Program-made: the position numbers and the translations under genes
Notes under the pieces: generated by a model
What the model was told of the DNA's origin: nothing
The model's database searches: none
Seen by the model: the letters and a program-made list of their open reading frames with translations, nothing else
Shown: positions 1,863-44,309 of the stretch, one piece after another
How the letters are laid out: every line of letters begins with the position of its first letter
How positions within the stretch are numbered: position 1 is the first letter of the stretch
Origin: an uncultured bacterium
GTDB taxonomy: Bacteria; UBP15; UBA6099
Reading direction: 5' to 3'
DNA: 64,000 bases
Assembly: GCA_964409645.1 (NCBI GenBank)
Contig: CAYPEK010000006.1
Coordinates: 16,823 to 80,822, forward strand

Positions 1863-2894
1863 TTATCGAGGCTCCTCCGCAAGCGGTTTCGGCGCGAACG
1901 GTATCTTCGCCGTGAATGTCGTGCCCTCGTCCTCCTTCGATCTGAACGTGATGCTCCCGCCGAGATTGACTATCAGGTTGTGAACGATCGCGAGTCCGAG
2001 GCCCGTGCCCTGTTTTATCCGCGACTTCGCGTTGTCCGCACGGAAGAACTCCTTGAATATGCGCGACTGATCCTTCTCCGGGATGCCGATTCCCTGATCG
2101 GCAACTTCGAGCCGCAGCGCATCGCCCTCCGCCGCGAGTTTCACCTTCACCGTTGTCGATTCCTTCGAGTACTTCACGGCGTTCTCCACGAGGTTCGTGA
2201 ATATGTGGTTGACTGATTTCCTGACGACACGCAACGCGGGCAGATTCTGCGCAATTTCCGTTTCGATCGTTACTTTTTTCTCGGCGGCCACCGGCGTGAG
2301 GATGGCCACAACGGCGTTCATCTCCGCCGCCGCGTCGGTCTGCTCCGCGCCCTCGTCCCGCTCGACTTTCGCCTCCGCGAGATTGAGGATGTCGTTGACC
2401 ATGTCGAGCATGTCCTCCGAGCGGTCGTAAGCCTGCTGGAGGAGATTTTTCACCGACGGGTCGTCGCCACCGATCGCGCCGGATACAATGACGCGAATCA
2501 CGCTTTGTATCGCGACGAGCGGCGACCGCATCTGGTGCGACGCCATCAGCAGGAAATTCTTCTTTATGCGCTCAACCTCTTCGAGTTTGCCGATCGTGTT
2601 TTCGAGTTGCCTGTTTCGGGATTCGAGGCAGGCGCGCATTCCGCGCTCCTCTTCGATAAGAGACTCCGCAGTGTCCGACGCCGATTCCGCGAGTGAGAGC
2701 CCCTGCCAGAGCAACAGGCAAAGCGACGCGGTGAATGCCGCCGCGAGCAATGAGAGCAATCGGTGCGCTTGTGGCCAGAGAGCAATCGCCGCAAGGTCCG
2801 CCGCGAGCAGTACGGTGAACACGACCGCCCCCGGCCGGTAGAAACGGTTGATTTTCTTACGGGCTTTTTTTATGGACGCTGTACTGTTGCTCAT
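1863..2894 (-). CDS. Sensor histidine kinase (one TM segment, HisKA plus HATPase_c)
   Basis: The track gives a 503-aa ORF. Its Arg-rich N-terminal 160 aa overlap the REC gene at 2891-3304 in another frame. The real start is ATG at 2892-2894 (MSNSTASIKK...), which overlaps the upstream TGA as ATGA. An H-box (MASHQMRSPL) and the N, G1 and G2 boxes (NLVENAVKYS, DQGIGI, GTGLGL) are present. Confidence 0.85.
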   Translation of the reverse strand: MSNSTASIKKARKKINRFYRPGAVVFTVLLAADLAAIALWPQAHRLLSLLAAAFTASLCLLLWQGLSLAESASDTAESLIEEERGMRACLESRNRQLENTIGKLEEVERIKKNFLLMASHQMRSPLVAIQSVIRVIVSGAIGGDDPSVKNLLQQAYDRSEDMLDMVNDILNLAEAKVERDEGAEQTDAAAEMNAVVAILTPVAAEKKVTIETEIAQNLPALRVVRKSVNHIFTNLVENAVKYSKESTTVKVKLAAEGDALRLEVADQGIGIPEKDQSRIFKEFFRADNAKSRIKQGTGLGLAIVHNLIVNLGGSITFRSKEDEGTTFTAKIPFAPKPLAEEPR

Positions 2895-3304
2895 GCGCCG
2901 CCTCCCGCGCCTCGTACGGAGAGGATTTTCCCGACGCGTTCGAGCAGGTCGGCCTTTCTCACGGGTTTCGATATGAAATCGTCCGCAGGCAAAAAATCGG
3001 GGTCGGCGGGCCAGAAATCGACTCCGTAAACGTCGCCGACGCTCGTCACCATGACGACCGGTATGTTCTTCGTGTCCGGGTCTTTTTTCAGAACGCGGCA
3101 GTACTCGAATCCGAGCGTGTCGCCGTAAAAAATCACGTCGAGCAGGATAAGGTCGGGTTTCTCGCGCTTTGCGGTTTCGACGCCCGACTTCGGGTCGGAT
3201 TCGCCGAGCACCTGATAGTCCTGAGTTTCGAGGATTGTTGCTACTATGCTCCTGAAATCGGGGTCGTCGTCTATGATGAGAATGCGCGGGGGAGTCTGAT
3301 TCAT
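2891..3304 (-). CDS. Response regulator receiver protein
   Basis: MNQTPPRILIIDDDPDFRSIVATIL...DLILLDVIFYGD...KP forms a REC domain. Its stop shares an ATGA overlap with the downstream HK start. Confidence 0.9.
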   Translation of the reverse strand: MNQTPPRILIIDDDPDFRSIVATILETQDYQVLGESDPKSGVETAKREKPDLILLDVIFYGDTLGFEYCRVLKKDPDTKNIPVVMVTSVGDVYGVDFWPADPDFLPADDFISKPVRKADLLERVGKILSVRGAGGGA

Positions 3305-3379
3305 AAGGCAATACCTCCGGAGCGCTCGCGTGCCGCCCCGGGCTGGGCGGCGCGCCGGCCGGCGCTCTTTCCAATACTT

Positions 3380-4876
3380 TTATTCCGACATTTCGGCTTT
3401 CCGCCTCACCGGCAGGTAAACCTTGAATGTGGAGCCCTCACCGAGTTTGGACTCCGCCGAAATCCTGCCGCCGTGCGCTTCAACTATTTCCTTAATTATC
3501 GAGAGGCCGAGCCCGGTGCCCGAAATTTTGTGCGTGGCCTCGTTTCTTACTCTGAAAAATTCCTCGAACAAGCGTGATACCGCCTCCTCGGGGATGCCGA
3601 TTCCCGTGTCGGCGCACTCGATCAGAACCTGATTCGACCCCTGCTTCCGCAGCGAGACTCTGACCGAGCCGCCCTTTTTGTTGTACTTGATCGCGTTCGA
3701 CACGAGGTTAGTCAACAGTTCTTCCATGTTGCCGCGGTCTGCGTCCACCTGCGGGAAATCCGGCTCGACGTCCAGCTTGAGCGTAACCTGCATTTCGTCC
3801 GCATTGACTTTCAGCAAAATTATCGTGTCGCGCGCGATCTCGTCCAGCGGCACCGGCTCAAAGTTGCGCCGCAGCAATCCGGAGCGCATCTTCATCACCG
3901 ACAGCAGGTCGCCGATCAGCTTCAACAGCGACGCCGCCCGCTCGCGGGACCGCTCGAGAACTTCCTTCTGCTTTTCCGGCTTGCCGTCCAGCAACCCGTC
4001 GAGTATCAGGTCGAGATACCCCTGTATAGCGCCCACCGGCGCCTTGAGCTCGTGCGCCACCATGCGCACGAAGTTGAATTTCGCCTTGTCCAACTCCTTG
4101 AGCTTCGTCACATCCCGCAGCACCGCCACCGATCCGAGCGTCTCGCCGCTCTCGTTGTACACCGGCGACAGCAGCACCGACAGCACCAGTTCGCTCTTCT
4201 TTCCGAGAGTGATTTCCTCCTCCATCTTGAAGAAACCGTGACCGTCGCTGTCCGAAACGCCCCTCAACGCGTCGCCGATCTTTTCCACCAGCTCCGCCGT
4301 CTTGTCGTTGTCCGGATCGTCCTCGTCGAGCAAGTCGCGCAGCGCAGGATTGGTCAGGACGATGCGCCCCTCGCTGTCCGTCACGATTATCCCGTCGCCG
4401 ATGCTTTCAAGGATCGTTTTCAGCCGTCCCTTCTCATACGCGATGTCCTTCAGGCTCCGCTCGCGCTCCTTGAGCAGCTTCCGCTCCACCTTGCGCAGCC
4501 GCACCGTCTCCTCCGCGCGCTGCATTATGTACAGAAGCTCGTCCGGCGTGAACGGTTTCGACAGGTAGTCGTACGCGCCGACTTTCATCGCCTCCACCGC
4601 CGACGAGATCGACGCGTAACCCGTGATGACGATCGGCACTATCTCCACGCCCTTGCGCCGGATCGCCTCGATGACCTCGATCCCGGACAGCTTCGGCATT
4701 TTCAGGTCGATTATCGCTATGTCGTATTCGCCCGCCTCGATTTTCTCAAGCCCGGCCTGCCCATCTTCGGCGGTGTCCACCACGTATCCGGCGTCTTTAA
4801 GGATTATCAGACACCCGTCCCTGATGGACTTCTCGTCGTCAACAACAATTACTTTTGTATGGGCAGCTTCCATCAA
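3380..4876 (-). CDS. Hybrid signalling protein: N-terminal receiver, PAS, then HisKA and HATPase_c
   Basis: The N-terminus VIVVDDEKSIRDGC...DIAIIDLKMP...KP is a REC domain. A central segment LKTILESIGDGIIVTDSEGRIV is PAS-like. HELKAPVGAI is the H-box, and NLVSNAIKY, DTGIGI and GTGLGLSI are the ATPase boxes. Confidence 0.9.
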   Translation of the reverse strand: MMEAAHTKVIVVDDEKSIRDGCLIILKDAGYVVDTAEDGQAGLEKIEAGEYDIAIIDLKMPKLSGIEVIEAIRRKGVEIVPIVITGYASISSAVEAMKVGAYDYLSKPFTPDELLYIMQRAEETVRLRKVERKLLKERERSLKDIAYEKGRLKTILESIGDGIIVTDSEGRIVLTNPALRDLLDEDDPDNDKTAELVEKIGDALRGVSDSDGHGFFKMEEEITLGKKSELVLSVLLSPVYNESGETLGSVAVLRDVTKLKELDKAKFNFVRMVAHELKAPVGAIQGYLDLILDGLLDGKPEKQKEVLERSRERAASLLKLIGDLLSVMKMRSGLLRRNFEPVPLDEIARDTIILLKVNADEMQVTLKLDVEPDFPQVDADRGNMEELLTNLVSNAIKYNKKGGSVRVSLRKQGSNQVLIECADTGIGIPEEAVSRLFEEFFRVRNEATHKISGTGLGLSIIKEIVEAHGGRISAESKLGEGSTFKVYLPVRRKAEMSE

Positions 4877-5109: not shown

Positions 5110-7140
5110 TTAAACTGCGCCGACCTCGTCGGCTTCCGCTATGTGCATTACGGGCAACCGGATTGTGAATGTGCTTCCCTTGCCCACCGTACTTTTCACA
5201 ATGATCGAGCCGCCGTGCTTGTCCACGATGCCGTGGGAAAGTGAAAGCCCCAGTCCGGTGCCTTTTATGCTCCCTTTTGTCGAAAAAAACGGGTCGAATA
5301 TTCTATTCAAATCCTCTTCGTTTATTCCACAGCCATTATCTGTGACGTTAATATCGACAAAACCGTTGTCGTTCGCGATATCCACCACAATCTCGCCCTC
5401 GCCTGAAATCGCCTGTACCGCGTTTATGACGATGTTCAAAAGCACCTGCTGGAGCTGCATCTTGTCGCCGCGGATCATCGGCGGCTTTCGTTCGAGATAA
5501 GGCTTTTTCACATTTATGTTCAGGAGCAGGCTCTGCTTTTCGAGGAGCGCGAAAACACGGTTAAGAAGCTCAACGGCGTCCACCGGCTCGAATTTCGGAT
5601 TGGTCTGTCGGGAAAAATCGAGAACGCCCTTCACGATCTCGCGCGCGCGCAACGTCTCGTCGATTATGTTGCGCAGCTTCGCCTTCTGCTCGTCGTCTTT
5701 CAGCGATTTGTCCAGAATGTTGGCAAAAAGCATTATTCCGCTGAGCGGATTATTTATTTCATGCGCGATGCCCGCCGCGAGACGCCCTATCGACGCCAGC
5801 TTCTCCACCCGGAAAATCTTCTGCTGCGCTTCCTTCATCCTCTCGTTGTACTCGATGAGCTGATCGATGATGTAGGGCAGACACATTTCGTTCTCGGCGA
5901 TCCCCTGATACACCGCCTTAGCCTTTTCGCGGCAGGTGCGGTATCCGCAGGCGCCGCAGTTGAGTTCATCCTCCGGGTTGTCCTTTTTGATTTCATGAAG
6001 GATCGCCCTGATCTCCTCCTCGGTCGGCTCCTTGAGGTCCATGTGTTCGTCCCCGAAGCGCCGCGTCAGATCGACATCATCGTATTCCGCGAGAATCTTT
6101 TCGAGCTCCTCGGCAGTAATCATTTTCGCGTTCTTCCGGGCGAATTCCGCGACAATTTCCTTGCGCTCGGTCAAGTTTGTGCCCGCAGGCATGAGCGGCC
6201 CGTTGATACAGCCCTCGCAAAAAAGCAGATCGAAGAATTTTGCCTTGGTCGTCCCTTTTTCAATCGATTCGAGCACATCCGGAACCCGGTCGTGGCCCTC
6301 AGCCACAATCATCTCATCGTTCAGGATGTCGTTCTGGAGCCCGGCGGTCCTCAGTAGGCCGCCGGAAACGGGATAGATACGGCCCAGACGCGCCGCCGGG
6401 CCGTCGAATTCCACCGGCTCCATTGCCTCAGGATCGATCCCGGCTTCGTCAAAAAGCGACTTCAATTCGGCGAAAGTGAGAACGGCGTCCACATCACCCG
6501 CAAGCTCGGTTTCCTCGCGTTCGAGCTTTTTCGATACGCACGGACCGGCGAACACAACCTTCGCGCCGGGTTTGTATTTTTCCTTGACCGCGCGGGCGGC
6601 CGCAATCATGGGCGAAACCACCGGCACGAAGAACGGGACGAGCTTCGGATGATATTTTTCGATGTATTTAACGAGGGTCGGGCACGGAGTCGCGATCAGC
6701 GGCCCCTCCGGCCGGTCTTTAAGGACTTTTTTGTAAGCGCGGCTGACGAGTTCTGCGCCGAACGCCACTTCTATGACATCCGAGAAACCAAGCTTCTTCG
6801 AGGCGGCAATCACCTTTCCGGGGTCAATGTCTTTGAACGCCGCCGGGAACGACGGGGCAAGTATCAGAACCACCGGCTCCGGCCACCCGAGAAGCGCTTT
6901 GGCAACCGACGCGCCGTCCTGAATGCGCTTGGCGTTCTGCGCGCACATCCGCACGCAGTTCCCGCAGGCGATGCAACGCTCGCTCATCACCCACGCCTGC
7001 CCCTGCTTGACGCCGATCGCCTTCACCGGGCAGTTGCGAATGCACGAATAGCACTGCCGGCACTTGTTCTCGATCGTGCTGACGACTCCCCGGCTGGTGT
7101 CCGGGGTGTACAATTTGCCCATCACTTCGTCAGGCGCCAT
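5110..7140 (-). CDS. Sensor histidine kinase whose input module is two ferredoxin-type 4Fe-4S motifs plus an [FeFe]-hydrogenase large-subunit (H-domain)-like fold
   Basis: The N-terminus has CRQCYSCIRNCP and CIACGNCVRMC ferredoxin motifs. A roughly 330-aa region follows with an H-domain-like spacing of Cys motifs: ATPCPTLV (compare TSCCPxW), AGPCVSKKLE (compare MPCxxKxxE) and FCEGCINGP (compare ExMxCxxGCxxG). Next comes a Cys cluster NCGACGYRTCREK...MC. The C-terminus has HisKA (IAHEINNPLSGI) and HATPase boxes (NIVINAVQA, DNGCGI, GTGLGLS). Confidence 0.85.
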   Translation of the reverse strand: MAPDEVMGKLYTPDTSRGVVSTIENKCRQCYSCIRNCPVKAIGVKQGQAWVMSERCIACGNCVRMCAQNAKRIQDGASVAKALLGWPEPVVLILAPSFPAAFKDIDPGKVIAASKKLGFSDVIEVAFGAELVSRAYKKVLKDRPEGPLIATPCPTLVKYIEKYHPKLVPFFVPVVSPMIAAARAVKEKYKPGAKVVFAGPCVSKKLEREETELAGDVDAVLTFAELKSLFDEAGIDPEAMEPVEFDGPAARLGRIYPVSGGLLRTAGLQNDILNDEMIVAEGHDRVPDVLESIEKGTTKAKFFDLLFCEGCINGPLMPAGTNLTERKEIVAEFARKNAKMITAEELEKILAEYDDVDLTRRFGDEHMDLKEPTEEEIRAILHEIKKDNPEDELNCGACGYRTCREKAKAVYQGIAENEMCLPYIIDQLIEYNERMKEAQQKIFRVEKLASIGRLAAGIAHEINNPLSGIMLFANILDKSLKDDEQKAKLRNIIDETLRAREIVKGVLDFSRQTNPKFEPVDAVELLNRVFALLEKQSLLLNINVKKPYLERKPPMIRGDKMQLQQVLLNIVINAVQAISGEGEIVVDIANDNGFVDINVTDNGCGINEEDLNRIFDPFFSTKGSIKGTGLGLSLSHGIVDKHGGSIIVKSTVGKGSTFTIRLPVMHIAEADEVGAV

Positions 7141-7159: not shown

Positions 7160-7828
7160 TCAGGCGTTCTTTTTCGCCCGGACCGCCTCGCGTATGCGGT
7201 TCAGCCACGCGTCGAACCCGGCGCCGGAGCGCGCGGACAGTTCGAACACTTCGAGCTTCGGATTCACCTGTTTAATATGCTCACGCATCTTGTCCATGTC
7301 GTAATCGAGGACCGAGAGCAGATCGGTCTTGCTCACCACCGCCCAGTTGCACACCTGAAACATGAGCGGGTACTTGAGCGGCTTGTCTTCGCCTTCGGTG
7401 ACACTCAGCAACACAGTTTTGAAGTCTTCGCCGAGTTCGAACTCCGCCGGGCAAACGAGGTTACCGACGTTCTCGACGAACACGATGTCGAGGCCGTCGA
7501 GCGACAGGTCCTGTGCGGCCGAGTTGATCATCGACGCGTCGAGGTGGCAGTCGCCGCCGATCGGCGCGGTGTTGATCTGTACGATCTGGACTCCGTGCCG
7601 CGCGAGACGCTCCGCGTCCATCGTCGTCTGGATGTCGCCCTCGATGACCGCGATCTTGAACTCGCCCTTGAGCGCGTCGATCGTCCGGTCCAGCAGCGTG
7701 GTCTTCCCCGAGCCCGGCGAACTCATGAGGTTGATCACCAGCGTTTTGTTCGACCCGAACATGCTTCTGTTTTCGTTCGCCACACGGTCGTTTGCGGCGA
7801 GCACCTTCTGTAGAACTTTGATTTCCAT
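7160..7828 (-). CDS. hypB: Hydrogenase nickel-incorporation GTPase HypB
   Basis: P-loop SSPGSGKTTLL, the CH metal-binding motif (GGDCHLD) and G-domain motifs (ENVGNLVCP, SKTDL) are all typical of HypB. Confidence 0.92.
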   Translation of the reverse strand: MEIKVLQKVLAANDRVANENRSMFGSNKTLVINLMSSPGSGKTTLLDRTIDALKGEFKIAVIEGDIQTTMDAERLARHGVQIVQINTAPIGGDCHLDASMINSAAQDLSLDGLDIVFVENVGNLVCPAEFELGEDFKTVLLSVTEGEDKPLKYPLMFQVCNWAVVSKTDLLSVLDYDMDKMREHIKQVNPKLEVFELSARSGAGFDAWLNRIREAVRAKKNA

Positions 7829-7860
7829 GCGGGGTATATCCTTTTCCTTATTTTATTTTC

Positions 7861-8883
7861 TCAGCAAATCCTCGGCAACTGCTCTCCCGCGAGCATGTCC
7901 ACTATTCGGGAGCCGCCGACCGCCGTCTTCAGCGCGGCCTTTCCCGGATGCGACTCAGTGACGACGCCGACCCGCGCCGCGCGGGCGCCAAGCGGGTGTG
8001 CCCTCATCGCCTCCAGAATCGCCGCCGATTTTTCCTTCGCGACGACGAGCGCTATTTTTCCCTCATTCGCAACATAAAGCGGGTCGAGCCCCAGCAGCTC
8101 GCACAATCCCTGAACGCCGTCCGACACCGGAATCGACTCCTCGTCGATTTCGATGCCGACTTTCGCTCCATCCGCGATCTCGTTCAGCACCGTCGCGAGC
8201 CCGCCGCGCGTTGCGTCACGCATGAAATGCACCGACCCCTGACCACCCGCATCCACCGCCGTGCGCACAAGCTCGGTCAGAGGCGCGCAGTCCGATTCCA
8301 CCGGGACGCTGAATTTCAGTCCCTCACGACACGCCATCACCGTCACGCCGTGGTCGCCGAGTGTTCCGCTCACGATTATTTCATCGCCGGGCCTGATGCT
8401 TCCCATCCCCGGCGCGGGGTCCATTTTAAGGACGCCGACTCCGGACGTGGTTATGAAAATTCCGTCGGCCGCGCCCTTTTCGACGACCTTCGTGTCGCCC
8501 GTCACTATCTTCACGTTGGCCGCGTCCAGCGCCGACTTCATCGACGCGAGAATACGCGCGAACTCATCGGCCGGCAGCCCTTCCTCTATTATAAAACCGC
8601 AAGAGAGGTAAAGCGGTTCCGCGCCCATCACGGCAATATCGTTCACGGTGCCGCAGACGGCGAGTTTTCCGATGTCGCCGCCCGGAAAAAATCGCGGCTT
8701 GACAACATAGCCGTCCGTCGTGAAAACGAGCGGCGACCGCGAGCCGCCCGTCTGACCGAACAGCACCGCCGCATCGTCGAGCGATTCCAGCAGCGAGTTC
8801 CCGAACGCTTCAAGGATCGCCCCCGAGATCAGGTCATGCGATTGCCTGCCGCCGCTGCCGTGCGCGAGTAGTATTTTTTCCAT
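7861..8883 (-). CDS. hypE: Hydrogenase expression/formation protein HypE
   Basis: The start is re-placed at MEKILLAHGSGG. The protein has a PurM/AIR-synthase-like fold and the hallmark HypE C-terminal ...PRIC tail. Confidence 0.9.
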   Translation of the reverse strand: MEKILLAHGSGGRQSHDLISGAILEAFGNSLLESLDDAAVLFGQTGGSRSPLVFTTDGYVVKPRFFPGGDIGKLAVCGTVNDIAVMGAEPLYLSCGFIIEEGLPADEFARILASMKSALDAANVKIVTGDTKVVEKGAADGIFITTSGVGVLKMDPAPGMGSIRPGDEIIVSGTLGDHGVTVMACREGLKFSVPVESDCAPLTELVRTAVDAGGQGSVHFMRDATRGGLATVLNEIADGAKVGIEIDEESIPVSDGVQGLCELLGLDPLYVANEGKIALVVAKEKSAAILEAMRAHPLGARAARVGVVTESHPGKAALKTAVGGSRIVDMLAGEQLPRIC

Positions 8884-8884
8884 T

Positions 8885-10006
8885 CTATAGTTCGTCTCCG
8901 TACTTATAATATGCCGCGCATGTGCCCTCGGATGAAACCATGCACGCGCCAACCGGCGACTCCGGCGTGCATACTTTTCGGAAGAGCTTGCACTGCGGCG
9001 GCTCGATCATTCCCGTCAGCACCTCGGCGCACCGGCAGCCGGGGTTGCTGCGTGGCTTGCACGACTCGACCGGCCACCTCGCCTCGGCGTCGTAATCCGC
9101 GAACGCATTCCGTATCTTCAATCCGCTTCCCGGAATCACGCCTATACCGCGCCATTCCGAGTCGCACGGCTCGAATACAGTGTCCATCAACGAGAGCGCT
9201 TTCGCGTTGCCGTCCTCGCCGACCGCACGCGCGTACTGCGAACGCACTTCGGCGCGGCCGCCGAGCGCCTGCTCCGCGAGCATTATTATCCCCTGCAGCA
9301 GATCAAGCGGTTCGAAGCCGACTATCACACACGGTATGTGTTGCCTTTCAGCTATCGGCGCGTAGGCGCGCGACCCGATGATGACGCTCACGTGGCCCGG
9401 ACAGATAAAACCCTTGAGGTTGAGTTTCGGGTTTGAGGCAAGCGCTTCGAGCGCGGCCGGCACCGTTTTGTGCGCGGACACGGCGGCGAAGTTTTCGAGC
9501 CCCGTCGCGCGCGCCTGCGCGAGCGCCGCCGCCACCGTCGGAGCGGTGGTCTCGAACCCGATCCCGAAGAACACCACTTTTTTATCAGGGTGCTGTTTAG
9601 CTATCTCTATCGCATCCATCGTCGAATAGACGATCCGCACGTCTCCGCCTGCCGCGCGCGCCGCTTCGAGGCTTTCCTCCGACCCCGGCACGCGAAGCAT
9701 GTCGCCGAACGTGGTGAGCGTGAACCCCGGCGTTTTCGCGTATGCGATAGCCTTGTCGATCAGCGGATTCGGCGTCACGCACACCGGGCAGCCCGGCCCT
9801 GAGATCAGCCGTACCGCGGGCGGCAGCGCGCGCCGGATGCCGCTGCGAAACAGCGCTACCGTGTGCGTTCCGCAGACTTCCATCAGCGGTATGCTGCCCG
9901 CCGGTTGCCCGTCGAGCATTTCCCGCAGCCGCGCGAACAGACCCTTCGCCAGTTCGCCGTCGCGGAACCACTTCGAATACTTCATATCTGAGTTGTTGTT
10001 TGTCAT
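8885..10006 (-). CDS. hypD: Hydrogenase maturation factor HypD
   Basis: The conserved HypD motifs CGTH, GPGCPVC and FETTAP are present, and a Cys-rich C-terminal region (ending ...CKPRSNPGCRCAEV) is typical of HypD. Confidence 0.92.
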   Translation of the reverse strand: MTNNNSDMKYSKWFRDGELAKGLFARLREMLDGQPAGSIPLMEVCGTHTVALFRSGIRRALPPAVRLISGPGCPVCVTPNPLIDKAIAYAKTPGFTLTTFGDMLRVPGSEESLEAARAAGGDVRIVYSTMDAIEIAKQHPDKKVVFFGIGFETTAPTVAAALAQARATGLENFAAVSAHKTVPAALEALASNPKLNLKGFICPGHVSVIIGSRAYAPIAERQHIPCVIVGFEPLDLLQGIIMLAEQALGGRAEVRSQYARAVGEDGNAKALSLMDTVFEPCDSEWRGIGVIPGSGLKIRNAFADYDAEARWPVESCKPRSNPGCRCAEVLTGMIEPPQCKLFRKVCTPESPVGACMVSSEGTCAAYYKYGDEL

Positions 10007-10035
10007 ATTAAATCGTACGGCCGCCCCGGCGTCTG

Positions 10036-10293
10036 CTACGCGCCGCCCTCTGAAGCCGCCTGCTCGTCCAGCGCCTTTAACAACGCCATCTCGCGCATCA
10101 GCTCAAGCGTCTCCTCCGCCACCGCTTCGTCGATCTTCTCGATCGCGAATCCCGCGTGGACGAGAATGTAGTCGCCCACCTCGACGTCGGCGAGCAGTTG
10201 CAGACTCACATCTTTTTCGACTCCGCCGTATTCAAACGTACCGAGGTCGTCCGTCTTCTTTTCCTTAAGTCTTACCGGCACTGCAAGGCACAT
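10036..10293 (-). CDS. hypC: Hydrogenase assembly chaperone HypC
   Basis: The N-terminal MCLAVP motif (essential Cys2) is present on an 85-aa OB-fold-sized protein 29 bp upstream of hypD. Confidence 0.9.
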   Translation of the reverse strand: MCLAVPVRLKEKKTDDLGTFEYGGVEKDVSLQLLADVEVGDYILVHAGFAIEKIDEAVAEETLELMREMALLKALDEQAASEGGA

Positions 10294-15511: not shown

Positions 15512-15889
15512 TTATCCCGGGAAATCTTGAATAAGCTGGATCAGAACACCGTCCGGCGCTTTGATGAACGCGATCTTCCTCGTCGGCCTGATCTGGAACG
15601 GCGGGAGCAGGAACTCCGCGCCCCGCTCGCGCAGAGCTTTGGCTTCGGCCTCGATGTCGTCCGATTCGAGCGCGAAGTGGCTGAGACCGTACTCGGGCGC
15701 GGCCGAGGGCGGCCCATCCTTCGACTTCGACCTCTCAAGCTCGATCTCGACCGTGTCGTTCCCCACGAATATGCACGGCGCTCCCATCACTTCCAGTTCG
15801 TACAACTTCTTGAACCCAAGCACTTCCGTGTAATATTTCAGGGTCGCTTCCTGATCCGAACATTTGACTCCGATGTGCAGAAACTTCAT
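15512..15889 (-). CDS. VOC/glyoxalase family protein
   Basis: MKFLHIGVKCSDQEATLKYYTEVLGFKK...HFALESDDIEAEAKALRERGAEF shows the beta-alpha-beta-beta-beta glyoxalase fold pattern. Confidence 0.8.
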   Translation of the reverse strand: MKFLHIGVKCSDQEATLKYYTEVLGFKKLYELEVMGAPCIFVGNDTVEIELERSKSKDGPPSAAPEYGLSHFALESDDIEAEAKALRERGAEFLLPPFQIRPTRKIAFIKAPDGVLIQLIQDFPG

Positions 15890-15910
15890 GATTAGCGGCC
15901 GCCTTCCGTC

Positions 15911-17156
15911 AGGATTTTATCAGCGTTTTGACTTTCTCGAAGCAGATGTCCGCCACTTCAAGCGTGCGCTGTATGTCGTCTTCCGTATGCCCGTAGCAGA
16001 TGAACCAGTTATGGTGCGGATGCAGGAAAACACCGCGCCGGATGGCTTCCGTGCAGAACAACGTCCTCATCTAGAACGTGTTCGGATAGTTGAAGTTCAT
16101 GTACGGGATCGACGGCGGGCCTGAGTACGTCACGTCAACGGAGTGCTTTTTGGCAAGTTCGAGCAGCCCGTTTTTCAGCAGCAGGCCGGTTCTTTCGACA
16201 GTCCCGATCACGTCCTGCGTGCGTATGAATTCGAGACACGCGAGCGCCGCCGCGAGCGGTGCGCCGTTGTAGAAATGCGTGCCCGAGAAGAATACGTTGC
16301 ACGCCGCCTTTTTCAGTTCCGCTTTGCCGTACGCAACTGACAGCGGATGGCCATTTGCAATTCCCTTGCCGATCGTCACCAAGTCCGGCTTCGCTCCGAA
16401 ATATTCGTGCGAGCCCTCGAACTTCAGTCTGTAGCAGCACCTGATGTCGTCCATTATGAACACGATGCCTTCCTGATCGCAAACCTCGCGTACCGCATCG
16501 AAAAATCCCGGCGCCGGAAGCTCGGTGTTGCTGAACGCCTCGTGCCTCATCGGCGTCAGAATTATCCCCGCGATTTCGCCCTTGTTCTTTTCCACCGTGT
16601 TGCGCAGGCTGTCGATGTTGTTGAATTCGAAGCTGATGATGCCCGCCCGGTGCTGGTCGTTCACGCCGGTTGTTGTCGGCACACACCAGTCGTGGAACCC
16701 GTGATACGTCCCGGACGCCATCAATATTTTTTTCCTTTTAGTGTGGACTCTCGCCACACGCGTACACCACGTCGTCACATCCGACCCGTTCTTCGCGAAA
16801 ATAACCCAGTCGGCCAGCGGTGTGTGCTTCACTATGTATTCGGCCGCCTCGACCCACCGGTCCATCGGCATCGTCATCAGACCGCCGCGCGTCATCTGCT
16901 CGTTCACGGCTTCCTCGACAACCGGATGCCTGTAGCCAAGCAGATTGGCCCCGAACGCGCACATGTAATCGATGTAGTCGTTACCGTCCACATCCACAGC
17001 GTGCCCTTTGTACCCTTCGTGGAAAAAGCACGGATACTGGCCGCCCACCATAAAATTCGGGTTCCTCGGCCCGAATATTCCGTTCGGAATAATCTCCTGC
17101 GCGCGCTCGAACATCTTTAGCGATTTTGAAATGTCGTAAAGCTTTTCTTCCATCAC
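15911..17156 (-). pseudogene. Class III (GSA-aminotransferase-like) PLP aminotransferase interrupted by one in-frame TAG at 16071-16073
   Basis: The 361-aa ORF (16071-17156) stops 59 codons short of full family length. Reading in-frame through the TAG gives M RTLFCTEAIRRGVFLHPHHNWFICYGHTEDDIQRTLEVADICFEKVKTLIKS to a TGA at about 15911. This is the canonical class-III C-terminus (FxHP...F.S.AHTxxDI). The PLP-lysine region TIGKGIANG is present. Confidence 0.6.
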
Positions 17157-17333
17157 TGCCTCCCCTTCGCCGAAACACGGCGCGTAACGCCATATCGACA
17201 GTAGTTTTCCTCAGTAATCACATAATGCCCCTCAAAACACAGGCTATTATATAACATTGATTCTGAATTGTTAAACCAAAAATTCTCACTGTATCCAGCC
17301 GAAAAAAATGATTGAAATATTCGGAAGACGCGG

Positions 17334-19061: not shown

Positions 19062-19622
19062 TTGCCCAGTTCCACTCCGAAGCTTCGCTGAACTTTGAAA
19101 ATTGAATAGTAGTGGAAAGAAAATTAGCACTCAATTCAAAAAGACCTGTGCTAAGATACCATAATTCAGTATCGCTAAAGATCGCAAAGTATCACGGAGC
19201 GCCTTTAGAGATAAAAGGCAAAACGAACAGCCCAAAAGAAAAATAAAAATGACATTTAAAGGTTTTGAGGGTATAGAACATTAAAAAGAATAAAAAAAGG
19301 CTTTAAAAAGGAAATTCAACAAATATCTGTTTGAATAAAGGTAAATTTAAGCAAACAAATTTCGGCGAGAAGTCGGAGTTGACGACAAAAAAGCGACAAA
19401 AGCAGCAATTCTTGAGTGATAAACTCAAGTTCTGAACTTTGAAACATGGAATCGACAGAGAGCTTTTTTAAAGAACTGGCTCTTTTGTGGAGTGCGGCAT
19501 TCCAAAATTGGTACATCTTCGTCATATTTTCTGGGGCGAGAGTTGTACAGTTAAAAACGAAGCGTTTGAGGTAGTTTTACAAATATTAAAAAATATTGAT
19601 GAAAAAAAGTTGGAGGGGGATT

Positions 19623-20732
19623 ATGTCTGAAAATTTTAGCCCGGAAATTGACCGATTTGCTCGAATTAGAGTTATCGGTGTCGGAGGCGGCGGAAGCAAT
19701 GCTGTTGACCGGATGATCGAGATCGGTCTTCGCGGTGTTGATTTTATTATAGTCAATACCGACACGCAAGCCTTGGTATCATCCAAGGTGCGACACAAAA
19801 TTCAGGTCGGCCCGAAGACTACGAGCGGGCTCGGTGCCGGCGCGGATCCCGGTAAAGGCCTGATGGCCGCAAAAGAGAGCCGGCACGAAATCGAACAGGC
19901 TCTTGAAGGATCCGATATGGTTTTCATTACCGCCGGCATGGGCGGCGGGACGGGAACCGGCGCGGCGCCGATCATCGCGGAAGTCGCCAAGGAACTCGGC
20001 GCTCTGACTGTTGCGGTGATAACAAAACCGTTCTCGTTTGAGGGCAAACAGAGGAAGATGGTCGCCGAGGAAGGCGCTTCGGTTCTTAAAGGTAAGGTAG
20101 ATACCCTTATCACAGTGCCGAATGAAAGACTTCTCTCCGTGATCGACCCCGCGACGAGCGTGAAAGACGCCTTCAAAAAGGCGGACGACGTGCTCCGGCA
20201 GGGCGTGCAGGGCATTTCCGACATGATCTCCATTCCGGGAATGATAAATGTGGACTTCGCGGACATCTGCACGGTGATGCGCGAGACCGGCTCCGCTCTC
20301 ATAGGTATCGGCGAGGGAACCGGCGAGCACCGCGCGATGGAAGCGGCGGAGAAATCGATGAACTGCCCGCTGCTTGAGAAGCCGATCGACGGCGCTCAGG
20401 GACTGTTGATAAACATAACCGGCGGACGCGATATGACGCTCCACGAGGTCAATACCGCCGCCGAGATCATCAGCTCTAGAGCCGATGAAAACGCCAATAT
20501 CATTTTCGGCGCCGTGATCGACGAGAGCCTCGAAGGTGTGATTCGCGTGACGGTCGTCGCCACCGGATTCGACGCCACGTATGCCGCGCAGAACCCGATT
20601 ATCACCACCCACGACGAGCAACCGCAGGCTGCCCCTCAGCAGCAGCAACAGCGTGTGATTAAGGTTGCAGGGTCTTCGTATCGGGACGAGCTCGACATTC
20701 CATCGTTCCTGAGGTCTCAGCAAGGACAATAG
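19623..20732 (+). CDS. ftsZ: Cell division GTPase FtsZ
   Basis: [14 protein letters not shown] and the tubulin signature [13 protein letters not shown] are present, with a Gln-rich C-terminal linker and the conserved C-terminal peptide DIPSFLR. GGAGGGGGA sits 4 nt upstream of the ATG at 19623, and the gene stops at TAG. Confidence 0.95.
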
Positions 20733-35108: not shown

Positions 35109-37637
35109 ATGAAATTAACAAAAAAACCTGACGCAACAATCGTCGAAGGAAAACAACTGCGACTGACGATCACTCCCCTCGAAAACGGCGGCGTTTGTTA
35201 CGACATCGCCGCGCGCGAAAAAAACGGCTGGGTGACGGTTCTCGGCTCGGAACGTTCGACTGTGGCCGCGAATAAGAACACGAAAGGCTGCGGGCAGATG
35301 ATGCGAACCTCGCGGCGAATTATCGAGTTCCCGCAGGAACTCGTGTCGGCGGAGGCGAAGAACGGCATCGCGACTGTTATTCTGCGCGGAAAGGCGGACG
35401 GCCACACCGCCGAGCAGAAGATGACATTCGGCGACAATGACTCGTACATCAATGTTGTATCCACCGTTAAGCTCGGCCACCCGTCGAGGATCGCCGCCGC
35501 GGGCACGGCGCACGTTTTCATACCGGACGGGATGCTGTATTCGCAGTATGAACCGCTCGACTTCTGCTGGATACCCCATCTTCGCCGACTTCCCGAACAC
35601 ACGATCGGAGACCACGTTTTCAGGTCGCCCGCCGTGATATTCCAGTCTGGGAAAATTATGGGAGCGATCGTTCCCGACCTCGACGTGCTCGCGAAGAACC
35701 GGCCGATGCCGACCGCGCTCGACGCGAGGCTCGAAATACCGGGCATGCCCGCGCCGGCGTTCTGGTACGGTTTCTGCCGCTACAAGATCGACGGTCACGT
35801 ATTTTTCAAGCAGGACGAGCCGGGACGCAAGCCTTGCAAGGGCGATCTTGTGTACGGGTACGATCTGTTGGCAGGCGCGGACGAGCCGGAACGGCACGCG
35901 CACCGCAGGGTGGCAAAGCATCTGTGGGATCGGTACGGTGCGAAGCTGATCCGCAACGTCGAACCGCAGACGGTAACTTACGACGAATACGCGCGGCGCG
36001 CTTATGGGTTTGCGTTCGACCGCGGTAAAATATGGCGGGAGTTCGACCTCGGCGGTAAACGCGCGGGCGGCACGGTCTCGGTGACTTTCGCCGGCCCGGC
36101 GAAAACTAAGTTCATGAATCACGGCGAAATCGAGCGGATGCTGAAGATGCAGAAACTGATCCCGGGCATACACGGCGCGGCGACGGACAAACTTCTGCAA
36201 ACCGAATTCGCGAATGACGCTCTCGAATTTATCGTACATAACACCACAATAACGGCCCCTCCGCACATTCTGAATCAGTCGTGGTTCTGCAATCTACGGA
36301 CGGCATACGGGGCATTCGCCTATTCGGAGAAGCTCGGCAACGCTTCGCTCAAGGATTACGCATTGAAGATGAAAGAACTCGCACTGGGAGCACCCGGCGA
36401 CCTCGGATTTATGTACTCCGACTGCTACTGCCCGGACGACGGCGATCCGATATGGATGCAGGGAATGAAAGCGTTCGAGGCGGTCCGCGATTACCACTTG
36501 CCGGACAACGCGTGGACGGGCTGGTGGATGCTGCGCTGGTACGAAGAACTCGAAAAAGACGAGCGGCTGCTTGAACGCGCGAAAGCCGTCGGCGACGCGC
36601 TGGCGGCCTCGCAGCTCGAAAGCGGCGCGATCCCCGGCTGGGTGCGGGTGAGGCGCGGCGTGCCGACCGCGGGGGCGACGCTACGCGAGAGCGCGCAGAC
36701 GGCCGCGCCGGGGATGTTCCTCGCGAGGCTGGCGCGAGTGACCGGCGAAGCAAAATATCTGAAAGCGGCCGAGAGCGCCGCTAAGTTTCTGATCGACAAC
36801 ATATTCCCTGATAACATCTGGTGGGACTACGAAACATTCTTCTCGTGCTCTAAAAAAGATGTCGGAATGAAGGACGCCGGAACGGGACTGCACTGCATGA
36901 ACAACCTCTGCATATTCTGGACGGCGGAGATGATGCGCGAACTCGCGGACAAGACAAAGAAGAAAACATATCTCGAACATGGGCTGCGCGCGCTCGACCT
37001 GATGATCCTCTGGCAGCAGGCGTGGGACCCGCCCTATCTTTCCATCAACGGGTTCGGCGGGTTCGGCGTGATGAACACTGACGGCGAATGGAACGACGCG
37101 AGGCAGAGCATGTTCGCGGAATGCCTGACGGCGTACTACGAGCTGACGGGCGAGCGCGAGTATTTCGAGCGCGGGGTGGCGGCACTGCGGTCGTCGTTCA
37201 CAACGATGCTGATTCCGGAAAACCGTGCGGTCGCCCCCGGCAACATGAAAAGGTTTATCGCGAAGGACGAAGGCGCATCGTACGAGAATTACGGCCACCT
37301 CGGGTTTGACCGATGCGCGCCGGGATATCTGATGTTCGACTGGGGGAGCGGCGGAGCGTGCAGCGCGGCGGCGCGTCTGACCCGCAGGTTCGGCGATATA
37401 TACATCGACGCGGCGCGCGGAAACGCGTTCGGGCTCGACCTGTGCACGGCGGTGAAGTACAAGACCGGCGAAGGCTCGCTGTCGCTCGAAATCGACGCCC
37501 CGCATAACGACGGAAGAACTCTCATGCTGAAAGCCACGGGTTTGAAACAAGGAAAATACAAGCTCACGGTCAACGGCGCCGCGCGCGGCACGCATACGGC
37601 GGCAGCTTTGCGGGACGGTATAGATGTAGAGCTTTGA
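35109..37637 (+). CDS. Large hypothetical protein (842 aa), possibly an (alpha/alpha)6-toroid glycoside-hydrolase-like fold
   Basis: GGAGGA lies 7 nt upstream of the ATG. There is no signal peptide. The Trp/Tyr-rich C-terminal half (WTGWWMLRWYEELEKDERLLERAKAVGDALAASQLESGAIPGW) is reminiscent of (alpha/alpha)6 hydrolases. No catalytic motif is confidently identified. Confidence 0.55.
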   Translation: MKLTKKPDATIVEGKQLRLTITPLENGGVCYDIAAREKNGWVTVLGSERSTVAANKNTKGCGQMMRTSRRIIEFPQELVSAEAKNGIATVILRGKADGHTAEQKMTFGDNDSYINVVSTVKLGHPSRIAAAGTAHVFIPDGMLYSQYEPLDFCWIPHLRRLPEHTIGDHVFRSPAVIFQSGKIMGAIVPDLDVLAKNRPMPTALDARLEIPGMPAPAFWYGFCRYKIDGHVFFKQDEPGRKPCKGDLVYGYDLLAGADEPERHAHRRVAKHLWDRYGAKLIRNVEPQTVTYDEYARRAYGFAFDRGKIWREFDLGGKRAGGTVSVTFAGPAKTKFMNHGEIERMLKMQKLIPGIHGAATDKLLQTEFANDALEFIVHNTTITAPPHILNQSWFCNLRTAYGAFAYSEKLGNASLKDYALKMKELALGAPGDLGFMYSDCYCPDDGDPIWMQGMKAFEAVRDYHLPDNAWTGWWMLRWYEELEKDERLLERAKAVGDALAASQLESGAIPGWVRVRRGVPTAGATLRESAQTAAPGMFLARLARVTGEAKYLKAAESAAKFLIDNIFPDNIWWDYETFFSCSKKDVGMKDAGTGLHCMNNLCIFWTAEMMRELADKTKKKTYLEHGLRALDLMILWQQAWDPPYLSINGFGGFGVMNTDGEWNDARQSMFAECLTAYYELTGEREYFERGVAALRSSFTTMLIPENRAVAPGNMKRFIAKDEGASYENYGHLGFDRCAPGYLMFDWGSGGACSAAARLTRRFGDIYIDAARGNAFGLDLCTAVKYKTGEGSLSLEIDAPHNDGRTLMLKATGLKQGKYKLTVNGAARGTHTAAALRDGIDVEL

Positions 37638-38804: not shown

Positions 38805-39941
38805 ATGCCATGCAAAAGCATACTCACAAAAGTAATGATCTTCGCATTTCTGGCAATGTTCGTCGCGGCAGCGCCCGGATGTGCCAAGGAAACCACGGAA
38901 AAAAACAAGAGTAAGACCAAGACAACGGCTAAAAAGTCGGAGCCTAAAAAGGCAACGAGCCAGACCACGGAAGCCGAAGGCGCGTTCATCTACGGCAAGC
39001 AAGCGCCTGACATCAACGTGGTGGACGCCGGCGGCAAACCGATTTCTCTCGACGACTACAAGAATAAAACGGTCGTCCTCGTGTTCTGGGCCGCCGAGTG
39101 CGACGTCTGCAAAAAGCAGATTAAGGATCTCGAAGTCGGCATCTCGAAAAAGAAGAACGACGTAGCGATACTTGCAATAACGCAGAATGTGAATCCTGAT
39201 AAAAACCGGGACGCGGCAGACGAATTGAAAAAGTCCAGCAAGACGGCGGTCGCCTTGTTCGATACAAACAACCAGACGGCAACCGTATATCAAATGTCCG
39301 GAATCCCGTATTTCGTGCTGATCGACAAGAAAGGCCGTCTGTCCGGGTCGGGAGTTTTCTCGGTTACGCAGAAGCTGCAGAGCGACACATTTGTAAACGA
39401 CGTGATCACGATCGACAAAGGCGGAAAAATCAATCAGTGCGAGTTCGCCGAGCTCGCAACGCCCGAAAAATACGCGAAAATGATCGGCAAAGAGCCGCCG
39501 AATTTCAAGCTGACGGACCTCAACGGAAACGAGGAGTCGCCCCTGTTTTATAAAGGATTCACAAACCTGCTGCTGGTGTTCTGGTCGCCATCTTGCCCGC
39601 ACTGCCGGCGCGAGCTGCCGAGGCTCGAAAATTTATACAACAAAAAAGGCAAAGACCTTAACCTGAAAATAGTAAGCGTGGTGGGTGTGCCGGACAAGAA
39701 GGACAAAACATTCGACGAAATAGTGGCCACCGCGCGGCTGATCGCCCTGCAGGATAAGATCAGTTTCCCGGTGGTTCTGGACACCGGGATGAAACAGCGA
39801 GTCGCATACAATGTCGAGGGTGTTCCCTCCCTGTTTCTGGTGGACATGAACGGAAAAATTCGCAACGCGTGGAGCGGCGAATCACCCAACGTTGGAATGA
39901 ACATAGAGTGTGCGATCGAAGAAGCCGGCAAAGGCAGGTGA
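38805..39941 (+). CDS. Lipoprotein with two tandem thioredoxin-fold (TlpA/ResA-like) domains
   Basis: The lipobox is AAAPGC, preceded by GGGAGG about 14 nt upstream. Domain 1 carries WAAECDVCKK (CxxC) and domain 2 carries WSPSCPHCRREL (CPHC). Each domain has the TlpA-like LVFW / ...PxxFLID pattern. Confidence 0.8.
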   Translation: MPCKSILTKVMIFAFLAMFVAAAPGCAKETTEKNKSKTKTTAKKSEPKKATSQTTEAEGAFIYGKQAPDINVVDAGGKPISLDDYKNKTVVLVFWAAECDVCKKQIKDLEVGISKKKNDVAILAITQNVNPDKNRDAADELKKSSKTAVALFDTNNQTATVYQMSGIPYFVLIDKKGRLSGSGVFSVTQKLQSDTFVNDVITIDKGGKINQCEFAELATPEKYAKMIGKEPPNFKLTDLNGNEESPLFYKGFTNLLLVFWSPSCPHCRRELPRLENLYNKKGKDLNLKIVSVVGVPDKKDKTFDEIVATARLIALQDKISFPVVLDTGMKQRVAYNVEGVPSLFLVDMNGKIRNAWSGESPNVGMNIECAIEEAGKGR

Positions 39942-39942
39942 C

Positions 39943-42639
39943 ATGCCGGTGAGCGCGGAGAAAAAAAGCGGCAGCGGCGAAAATACCGCTCGCGCGGCGG
40001 AGCCCAACCGGAACCTGTGGTTCTGGACAGCGGGCGTTTTTCTCGCATCGGCCGCTTTCTATATCAAATCCGTTGCGCCTGATTTTCTCTTCGACGACAA
40101 CCCTGAATTCATAGCTACATCGCGGTATCTCGGCATCGCTCACCCTCCGGGATATCCGCTTATTTCGCTTATCGGCAAGCTGTTCTCTTACACCGCCCCG
40201 GGAACCGCGGGCATGCCGGTTAACCTGCTCTCCGCTTTCGCCGGCGCGGTTGCGGTCACTCTCGGATTCCTCCTCATATACAGAGCGACCCGCTGGATCG
40301 CCCCGTCGCTGATCGGCGCGGGAATGATTCTCACATCGAGGCTGTTCTGGGAACAGGCCGGTCAGGTGGATGTTTACGCCGTCAACGGCATGTTTTTGTT
40401 CGCAACCCTTCACTTGATCTGGAGCCTTGACCGATCGCGCCGGGACGCAGCGCGAATCATCGCGCTCTCGGCGATTTTCATTCTCGCCCTCTTCAACCAC
40501 TACACGATGGTGCTCGTTTTCCCTGCTTACGCCGTGTATATCTTCTGGCTTTACAGAAGAAGTTTCGACCGGCTGTTGAAGATAATTCCGACGGTTATAC
40601 TCGCGGCGGCGGTCGCGTTTTCGGTTCTTATGTATCTGCCGCTGCGTTCAGCGTCCGGCCCGGTGATGAACTGGGACGAGCAGACGAAAGTAAGCGATTT
40701 TTTTAAGCACGTGAAGGGAGTTGACCTGCGGACGGCTACGCCGCGCGTGCCTCTTGCGGTCAAGTGGCGGTTCGTCGAGGACTATGCGGTGCGCGCGTGG
40801 CAGGACAGATCGCCCGCGCTGCTCGTGTTGCTTCCTCTCGGTTTCTGGAGCCTGTTTAAAAAAAAGTCGGCGTTCGGCCGGCGGCGCGGCGCAATCGTCG
40901 CCGCATCGTGGTTCCTGCTATTCGCGGGCTATGTGCTGTTGCCTAACTATCTCTATGGGCCGCGCGCTTCGTACGTCGTGAAATCATTCCACAGCACATC
41001 GCTCATGATGCTCGGATTCATAATGGGGTTCGGCGCATTCGAAGCGTTGTCGCTCGTGAAGCGGGCAAAGCTCCCGTGGGGCGCTCTGGCCGCGGTCGCG
41101 GCGGTGCTGATCGGCCACTCGGCCCTTGCCGGCCGCTCGACGGCGGACCACGCAAACGACCTGATGGCGACTCGGTACGGCCGCAACATGCTGCTGTCCG
41201 CTTCAAGGGACGCGATTGTTTTCTCAACACTCGAGACGGAAACGTTTCCCATGATGAACCTTCGCGCCACACATTACCTTCGGCGCGACATCACGCTGCA
41301 CGGCAGACACGGAGACCCGCTGATCGCCGCCCTCGCCATGGGCCGCAAGGAACAATCCTACCTGCGAATAAACGAAGTGGCCGATATTCAGAAATATGCG
41401 CTTATCAGCACTATATATCAACGCCCGATATTCTTCACAAAGCGTCTGGATATTCAGGACCGCCCCGACCTTGCTGTCGTAACGAACGGACTTCTCTACC
41501 AGCTCGCGTTCGGCGGCAAACCTCTCTACTGGCCGGACCCGTGGCTGCGAATCGACCAGACAGGCATCGACTACAAATATAAGGGATATGACACAATCCA
41601 GAGGAATGTCATCAGCCGTTACCTCGTCATGCATGGAGAGCATTACCTCGAAATCGGACAGTGGGATGACGCTATAAACCTGTTCGACCGCGCGGCGGAA
41701 TTTAACCCCGGCTCACGGTTCCTGCGGGCAAACCTTGGAGCAATTTTTCTGCGGATTAACGACTTTAAGCGCGCGCGCAAGGAATACGAAGAAGGACTCG
41801 CCGCGGACCCGGAAAATGTCGAGACGAGCATAGACACGGTCGCGATGTACAGCAACCTGTCGTTTATATACGGCACGTTCGGCGAGAAGGACAAGGCGCG
41901 CGAAGCGATGGAAACCGCGGTGCGCCTCGACCCGGAAAACGGATTGCTTCGTGTCAACTTAGGTAAAACGTATTGGCATCTCGAGCGGTGGGTGGACGCG
42001 ATCCGTCAGCTCGAAGCCGCGAAGAAATACGGCATTACGGATAACGCCGCAGTCTATAATATTCTCGGAATCTGCTACGAAAAGATAGGCAAATACAAGA
42101 AGGCGGAGGAGAACTACGAGCTCGCGATCACTACAAACCCCGCGCTCGTGGATGTGTACAGAGACTACGGCGTCTTCTGCGCCTACATCAAAAATGATCC
42201 GAAAAAAGCAATCGAGTTGCTGAACATTTATCTCGAACTCGCACCCGGTGTTCAGGACGAGCCCGACATCAGGGTGAACCTCGGTTTTCTGAACAAAAGT
42301 GTGGGCAACTATCAAGCGTCGGCGGCGGCATTCAGGTCCGCCTTGCTTCTCGGCGCGGACACCACGCTGAGAAAAACGGCGATCATCTACACCGCGCTCG
42401 CGGACTCACTCGACAAGATCGACCTTCCCGCCGATGCAAAAGAAGCCTACGAGAAAGGCCTAGTCGGCACGGAAGACTATCCCAAGATTCTCGTCGAATA
42501 CGCGGACTTCCTCGACAGGCGCAAAATGAACACCGCCTACGCGCTGAAACTGCTCGACCGCTACATGACAATTTCTCCCAACCCGGAGGATAGAATCCGG
42601 GTCGATCTCCTTAGAGCAAAGTTGAAAGCCAGAAAATAG
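39943..42639 (+). CDS. DUF2723-type polytopic membrane protein (GT-C-like) fused to C-terminal TPR repeats
   Basis: The N-terminal third carries hydrophobic segments predicted as TM helices and the motifs FLFDDNPEFI and HPPGYPL typical of DUF2723. The C-terminal 350 aa are TPR repeats. The gene stops at TAG. Confidence 0.75.
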   Translation: MPVSAEKKSGSGENTARAAEPNRNLWFWTAGVFLASAAFYIKSVAPDFLFDDNPEFIATSRYLGIAHPPGYPLISLIGKLFSYTAPGTAGMPVNLLSAFAGAVAVTLGFLLIYRATRWIAPSLIGAGMILTSRLFWEQAGQVDVYAVNGMFLFATLHLIWSLDRSRRDAARIIALSAIFILALFNHYTMVLVFPAYAVYIFWLYRRSFDRLLKIIPTVILAAAVAFSVLMYLPLRSASGPVMNWDEQTKVSDFFKHVKGVDLRTATPRVPLAVKWRFVEDYAVRAWQDRSPALLVLLPLGFWSLFKKKSAFGRRRGAIVAASWFLLFAGYVLLPNYLYGPRASYVVKSFHSTSLMMLGFIMGFGAFEALSLVKRAKLPWGALAAVAAVLIGHSALAGRSTADHANDLMATRYGRNMLLSASRDAIVFSTLETETFPMMNLRATHYLRRDITLHGRHGDPLIAALAMGRKEQSYLRINEVADIQKYALISTIYQRPIFFTKRLDIQDRPDLAVVTNGLLYQLAFGGKPLYWPDPWLRIDQTGIDYKYKGYDTIQRNVISRYLVMHGEHYLEIGQWDDAINLFDRAAEFNPGSRFLRANLGAIFLRINDFKRARKEYEEGLAADPENVETSIDTVAMYSNLSFIYGTFGEKDKAREAMETAVRLDPENGLLRVNLGKTYWHLERWVDAIRQLEAAKKYGITDNAAVYNILGICYEKIGKYKKAEENYELAITTNPALVDVYRDYGVFCAYIKNDPKKAIELLNIYLELAPGVQDEPDIRVNLGFLNKSVGNYQASAAAFRSALLLGADTTLRKTAIIYTALADSLDKIDLPADAKEAYEKGLVGTEDYPKILVEYADFLDRRKMNTAYALKLLDRYMTISPNPEDRIRVDLLRAKLKARK

Positions 42640-42669
42640 GAAGCGCTCCCGCGCGCAGGCGGCCGCAAA

Positions 42670-43864: not shown

Positions 43865-44293
43865 TTAAAACCGCTGCTCGTATCGCTTTTTGTCGAACGA
43901 GCTCTCGGGGCGCGAGTCCCAGTATGAAGGCGCTTTCGGGTCGCGGCGGCGCTTCATCGGGTCTTTGCCGAACAGCCGCATGAGCAGCCCCATCGGGGTG
44001 AAAACGAGAAAATATACAACCGAAAGAAGGATCGTGGTACTGATGCGATTCAGTACCATCGCTGCCGCGGTCCAGCCTTTGAACACCGGCATTAGCAGCG
44101 GTGTCGCGACGAATCTTATGAGGATGAAAAACGCAGAGAGTCCGCCGAAAATGTACGCCCCCGTGTGGCGACCCCGGAGATAAAGCAAAGCCGCGAGAAT
44201 GCCGAAGAAAAACACGCCGACAACGCCGAACTGGCGCGCGACTTTTGTCCCGCTGGGGGGCGATTCCTTTTTTATTTCACCTTCGGTCAACAT
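43865..44293 (-). CDS. SxtJ-like small membrane protein
   Basis: The 142-aa protein has three hydrophobic helices and a basic C-terminus. It lies 17 bp downstream of the carbamoyltransferase, the usual partner of SxtJ-family proteins (recollection, not searched). Confidence 0.65.
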   Translation of the reverse strand: MLTEGEIKKESPPSGTKVARQFGVVGVFFFGILAALLYLRGRHTGAYIFGGLSAFFILIRFVATPLLMPVFKGWTAAAMVLNRISTTILLSVVYFLVFTPMGLLMRLFGKDPMKRRRDPKAPSYWDSRPESSFDKKRYEQRF

Positions 44294-44309
44294 AACGCCG
44301 CGCCGGCCG

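Follow-up and report, generated by a model that had tools for sequence, protein, structure and literature searches.

A single amber codon lying in frame within a conserved enzyme gene raises the question of whether it is decoded, whether it is a genuine lesion or whether it was written into the sequence by error. Such a codon interrupts a class III aminotransferase gene of an uncultured bacterium, on a 64-kb stretch of DNA that we analysed as a whole and refer to below as the window. Our comparison was of assembled contigs and proteins. The reading we favour, with a probability of about 0.8, is a recent nonsense mutation in one strain lineage of the bacterium, which would make this a strain-level loss-of-function allele and a nascent pseudogene.

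The first-pass annotation of the window had an aminotransferase ORF cut by a TAG at 16071-16073, without giving its strand. The codon is seen directly, in a gene encoded by the minus strand. A 361-aa ORF (17156-16071, minus strand) ends at the TAG, and abutting it in the same frame is a 53-aa ORF (16070-15909, minus strand) that runs from ATG to TGA; straight-through translation from 17156 to 15909 meets one stop, then 53 residues (MRTLFCTEAIRRGVFLHPHHNWFICYGHTEDDIQRTLEVADICFEKVKTLIKS), then the TGA. The coding strand around the stop reads TTC TAG ATG AGG. The annotation was right that what follows the TAG is a family C-terminus closed by TGA, but its count of 59 codons was too high by six. 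Two alternative starts, GTG 17156 and ATG 17153, share the frame that stays open down to the TAG; since a Shine-Dalgarno-like element stands just upstream and database homologues start at MEEK, ATG 17153 appears the likely start. The features of the locus are:

17246..17274, minus strand: promoter-like site TTAACA-17-TATAAT, found by consensus scan with 11/12 matches, a consensus match only
17159..17165, minus strand: Shine-Dalgarno-like GGGGAGG, 5 nt upstream of ATG 17153
15909..17153, minus strand: the interrupted aminotransferase gene, comprising 360 codons, TAG, 53 codons and TGA; its counterpart is an intact 414-aa allele (protein P0121)
16074..17153, minus strand: the N-terminal 360 codons, with the PLP-binding core (D235/D236 and K263 invariant)
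16071..16073, minus strand: the premature amber codon, codon 361 counted from ATG 17153 (CTA on the plus strand)
15912..16070, minus strand: the stranded C-terminal 53 codons, the first being the ATG directly after the TAG; TGA at 15909-15911
15512..15889, minus strand: a glyoxalase/VOC-family gene of 125 aa, 19 nt after the aminotransferase TGA (Pfam Glyoxalase, 4.2e-17)

The further claim that, its stop aside, the gene is an intact class III aminotransferase is well founded. It scores 141.8 bits against Pfam PF00202 (Aminotran_3), for which the cut-off is 30.5 (E = 3.2e-41), and it retains K263, in the motif G-K-G/A, and D235/D236, in the motif DD-I/V-R, both of them columns without variation among 37 homologues. 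In HemL 3l44 and in FumI 6hbs the residue that aligns with K263 is the lysine of G-K; from what is general in the family we take K263 to be the Schiff-base lysine, and D235 to be the aspartate that binds the PLP pyridine. The best match among solved structures is the FumI aminopentol aminotransferase 6hbs (E = 8.5e-85), over residues 14-408, the post-TAG segment included. FumI (PDB 6hbs/6hbv) has the same overall length and an H-P-x-H-N motif in common with the window gene, but the relationship is a moderate one and the window gene's clade invariably has a small VOC/glyoxalase gene as partner. Alignments to HemL profiles run from one end to the other (e.g. 3-428 of 429), and JGI names many of the relatives accordingly, but scores of 213-226 bits compare with curated cut-offs of 398-637 bits. 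Identity with HemL was rejected at 215.8 against 527.3 (TIGR00713) and at 223.6 against 398 (NF000818), and identity with the guanitoxin transaminase GntE at 230.9 against 525 (NF041362). Because its scores fall so far under the curated cut-offs, we regard the gene as a HemL-like paralogue, not as HemL; judged by sequence likeness, it is a FumI/HemL-like class III, fold-type I, PLP-dependent aminotransferase. The nearest relatives of the protein among species-representative genomes are MAGs at 78-80% protein identity.

That the frame stays open past the stop is weak evidence taken alone, since in a rough greedy gene call of the window about one ORF in three shows an in-frame extension of at least 40 codons, mostly through neighbouring or opposite-strand genes; it is homology that gives the extension significance. 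By itself the 53-aa piece is 73% identical to the C-terminus of an orthologue, P0006, that is 69% identical overall (E = 2e-25), and it aligns with the C-termini of both FumI 6hbs and HemL 3l44. NCBIfam profiles of the HemL type span the TAG and fall only a few positions short of their ends (e.g. 428/429). When the intact protein P0121 was searched against the window by tblastn, 414/414 residues were covered at 99.76% identity, the sole mismatch being the stop.

What stood at codon 361 before the stop can be read from relatives of the gene. A search over 5.8 billion proteins returned 849 of these, and lengths were read for the best 120 of the 849: all are of 400-424 aa, save for P0001, the truncated 360-aa product. 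When the closest 27 are aligned, the nine nearest orthologues (66-80% identity) read Phe-Gln where the window gene has its TAG, these being the ones that lie outside the window's own cluster and align at the site with Phe before it; more distant orthologues have other sense residues there. The comparison of orthologues that had been proposed at the outset thus returns Gln for the TAG position, and the finding that was to count against an interrupted gene, namely orthologues ending at this same position, is not what is seen: the orthologues are all of about 410 aa and possess the conserved downstream segment.

Closer still is the 90% cluster of the truncated product, which has three members, the 360-aa P0001 and P0122 and the 414-aa P0121. 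The last is the window protein residue for residue, with Gln at 361, and at least four other samples (ERR7570006, ERR7570005, ERZ27257505 and JGI 3300028624) yielded contigs encoding it. Both alleles are therefore present in public data, on the following contigs:

L004, JGI 3300028624: CAG; 1 base different in 1,414 bp, at 16073 (on the coding strand, C against T in the window)
L003, ENA ERZ27257505: CAG; 2 bases different in 2,584
L001 and L002, Logan ERR7570006 and ERR7570005: CAG; about 97-98% identical to the window
L006, Logan SRR11235434: TAG; 100% identical over 3,086 bp
L005, NCBI GCA_020047475.1, JAHZTK010078563.1: TAG; 1 base different, giving A120V

To judge from these alleles, the TAG is a former CAG (Gln361) in which one base, at position 16073, has undergone a C→T transition as read on the coding strand, or G→A on the plus strand. 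The view that this is a point nonsense event and not a frameshift is upheld: there are no indels with respect to the six related contigs, and TAG in place of CAG is the only coding difference from P0121. Against the 97.8%-identical strains (L001, L002) the gene shows 24 synonymous codon differences and, besides the stop, no non-synonymous ones, a pattern that places the intact gene under clear purifying selection. The 53 codons downstream are undegraded and carry no further lesion; since nothing there has decayed, the stop probably arose recently. An exact search of JGI metagenomes with a 27-mer carrying N at the variable base found one contig, L004 (CAG), too few for an allele frequency. Public gene calls for L005 and L006 split the gene into a 360-aa protein (P0001/P0122) and a 53-aa protein (P0123), with no pseudogene flag. 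Looking up the 53-aa fragment led to L005 and to no other contig. The A120V change on L005 (GCG→GTG), equivalent to window position 16795, falls in the conserved motif F-A/G-KNGSD, where all aligned homologues have Ala or Gly.

An allele that differs from one in other samples by 16073 alone might also arise in the making of the sequence, in which case the organism itself would carry CAG and the TAG would be a mistake of sequencing or consensus calling, or else a minority variant that found its way into the consensus. A one-base C→T transition belongs to the commonest class of error and damage, and the window comes from a metagenome-assembled contig. On the other side, the TAG allele has been assembled three times (in the window, in Logan SRR11235434 and in NCBI GCA_020047475.1), from different pipelines and once together with A120V, and random read errors do not outlast consensus calling at normal coverage. 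A slip of the assembler is argued against by the presence of the stop on two distinguishable consensus haplotypes, one of them marked by A120V, and a generally error-ridden assembly by the finding of no other broken gene among the about 52 ORFs of the window. The three assemblies may nevertheless share raw data, from one sample or one study; a literature search for the six accessions found no paper citing them. The TAG is probably not an assembler artefact, and we consider an erroneous base of any of these origins unlikely.

Programmed recoding, in which the TAG would be decoded as pyrrolysine by a Pyl system, or as another amino acid through reassignment of amber, draws on one feature of the locus, namely that a conserved gene contains a TAG in frame and stays open beyond it. 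In this genome TAG serves as an ordinary stop codon. It terminates ftsZ (19596-20732), where the next in-frame stop comes 3 codons later, and hypD (8885-10006), whose match extends to profile position 351/351, three residues short of the stop, as well as hypC (10036-10293) and a TPR/TMEM260-like gene (39910-42639); in the rough gene call of the window, 11/52 ORFs end in it. A reassigned amber codon would not close conserved genes where their profiles end, as it does here. In a gene that used pyrrolysine the TAG would be expected at the same site in orthologues, and what is found there is CAG or Gln, in P0121 and contigs L001-L004, and Gln in the nine orthologues.

Two checks had been suggested in connection with pyrrolysine, and neither, run within the window, lends it support. 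A tRNA scan of the 64 kb detected no tRNA, and so no suppressor or tRNA-Pyl candidate, and Pfam scans of the about 52 ORFs yielded no PylS/B/C/D, no methylamine methyltransferase and no other interrupted gene, the window being made up of ordinary chromosomal genes. The scan for other in-frame TAGs turned up one apparent continuation, 39907-42639 / 42640-43602, which proved to be a plain boundary, at 42637-42639, between two adjacent genes sharing a frame: a 909-aa TPR/TMEM260-like gene ending in TAG (plus strand), followed by the gene of a GT2 glycosyltransferase, which has an ATG of its own at 42670. Other pairs of ORFs in the same frame were rejected as shadow ORFs opposite real genes, e.g. 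5407/6358 opposite the kinase gene at 5110-7140. The genes for Pyl-containing methylamine methyltransferases also have a single in-frame amber inside a conserved enzyme gene, but there the TAG is conserved in orthologues and the genome has pylTSBCD, whereas here the orthologues have CAG and TAG is a normal stop. Pyrrolysine or reassignment is unsupported at this site, given that orthologues use a Gln codon in its place, and we attach almost no credence to recoding of any kind.

With the TAG read as a normal stop, translation of the mutant allele would end after residue 360. The 53 residues lost hold 7/46 of the columns that are invariant in the 37 homologues (F366, G374, P379, H381, N382, W383 and F384) and five further columns conserved at ≥90%. 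AlphaFold2, applied to the intact allele, gives a model (mean pLDDT 93, pTM 0.91) with residue 361 at the start of helix 359-371, and truncation removes most of this helix, strand 375-376, the HPHHNWF loop and the terminal helix 391-413, all of the C-terminal small domain. The 360-aa product thus does not possess a complete small domain, though the DNA for the missing elements is still in frame. With two helices, a strand and the invariant HPHHNWF loop gone, the truncated product is probably unstable, misfolded or inactive, as far as conservation and the model can tell. No second aminotransferase copy that might compensate was found within the window.

These properties are those of a strain-specific nonsense pseudogene: a one-base premature stop beside an intact, selected homologue, seven invariant columns lost, an intact allele of >99.9% nucleotide identity, and a frame that is kept and shows no decay. 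In nothing essential does the case differ from that class, its oddities being the chance ATG after the stop and the circumstance that the residue replaced, Gln, is the one usually inserted in UAG read-through. Both oddities bear on whether a real stop might leave function partly rescued, either by re-initiation at the adjacent ATG, giving a split enzyme, or by read-through by a near-cognate tRNA-Gln.

In bacteria, translational coupling is supported where a stop and a start codon lie tightly together, and TTC TAG ATG AGG puts a start codon right after the stop; moreover, the model has the break where a helix begins, at a boundary of surface type in the C-terminal domain, and the 53 codons beyond it are without further lesion. 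However, the Met that follows the stop is ancestral (Q-M in both P0121 and P0002), so that the ATG appears to be a coincidence, not an adaptation. No Shine-Dalgarno-like element precedes that ATG (CCGAACACGTTC), whereas the true start has GGGGAGG; no orthologue is split at this position; and the undecayed 3' part is equally explained by a very recent mutation. As for read-through, natural UAG read-through mostly inserts Gln, which in this gene would restore the wild-type residue. A120V, the sole extra change on the TAG haplotype, is non-conservative and in a conserved motif; it hints at, and would fit, relaxed selection after the stop, though as a single data point. Partial rescue is on this evidence improbable. 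Slightly less probable again is its fullest form, in which re-initiated fragments of 360 aa and 53 aa reassemble into an active enzyme, Gln read-through adds some wild-type protein and the allele is free of cost.

The nonsense allele may also affect its neighbour. In the four species-level relatives that are nearest (L008-L011), the next gene after the orthologue is again the VOC gene, and so it is in L001-L003 and L005-L006. The spacing between aminotransferase and VOC genes stays within about 20 nt even in relatives at only 66-80% identity, marking a conserved two-gene unit. Given this conserved pairing, the stop could through polarity cut expression of a co-transcribed VOC partner.

Several other genes of the window deserve mention in their own right. 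A 676-aa ORF at 5110-7140 (minus strand) joins an [FeFe]-hydrogenase large-subunit C-terminal domain, with 4Fe-4S and FeS motifs, to HisKA and HATPase_c, a domain make-up that suggests a fusion of a sensory hydrogenase with a histidine kinase. The ORF adjoins hypB, a hypE-like gene, hypD and hypC (7160-10293, minus strand) and is near two further (hybrid) histidine kinases (1863-4876, minus strand). Elsewhere, a small SxtJ-like protein adjoins a carbamoyltransferase (1e-97 for the N domain, 3e-70 for the C domain) at 43865-46127 (minus strand). Four ORFs gave no Pfam match at E ≤ 1e-5: 35109-37637 (plus strand, 842 aa), 61266-63374 (minus strand, 702 aa), 60083-61183 (minus strand, 366 aa) and 58148-59155 (plus strand, 335 aa).

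The history that we propose for the nonsense allele is accordingly brief. One C→T transition turned Gln361 from CAG into an amber TAG; the product, shortened by its last 53 residues, would most likely be misfolded or inactive, leaving the gene a nascent pseudogene; and the intact CAG allele persists in sister populations, the loss-of-function allele segregating beside it. An event of this kind is ordinary and already well understood, and it is not genetic recoding: the in-frame TAG here is no evidence for amber recoding in this organism. Rather than appear as two ORFs (360 aa and 53 aa), the gene is best labelled a pseudogene, or a nonsense allele whose intact form encodes a 414-aa aminotransferase. 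It serves too as a worked example of how, for a lone in-frame stop, a near-identical intact allele from other metagenomes can settle the choice between recoding and mutation. Should the allele prove frequent in its source community, it would mark a very recent loss of the conserved aminotransferase-VOC two-gene unit.
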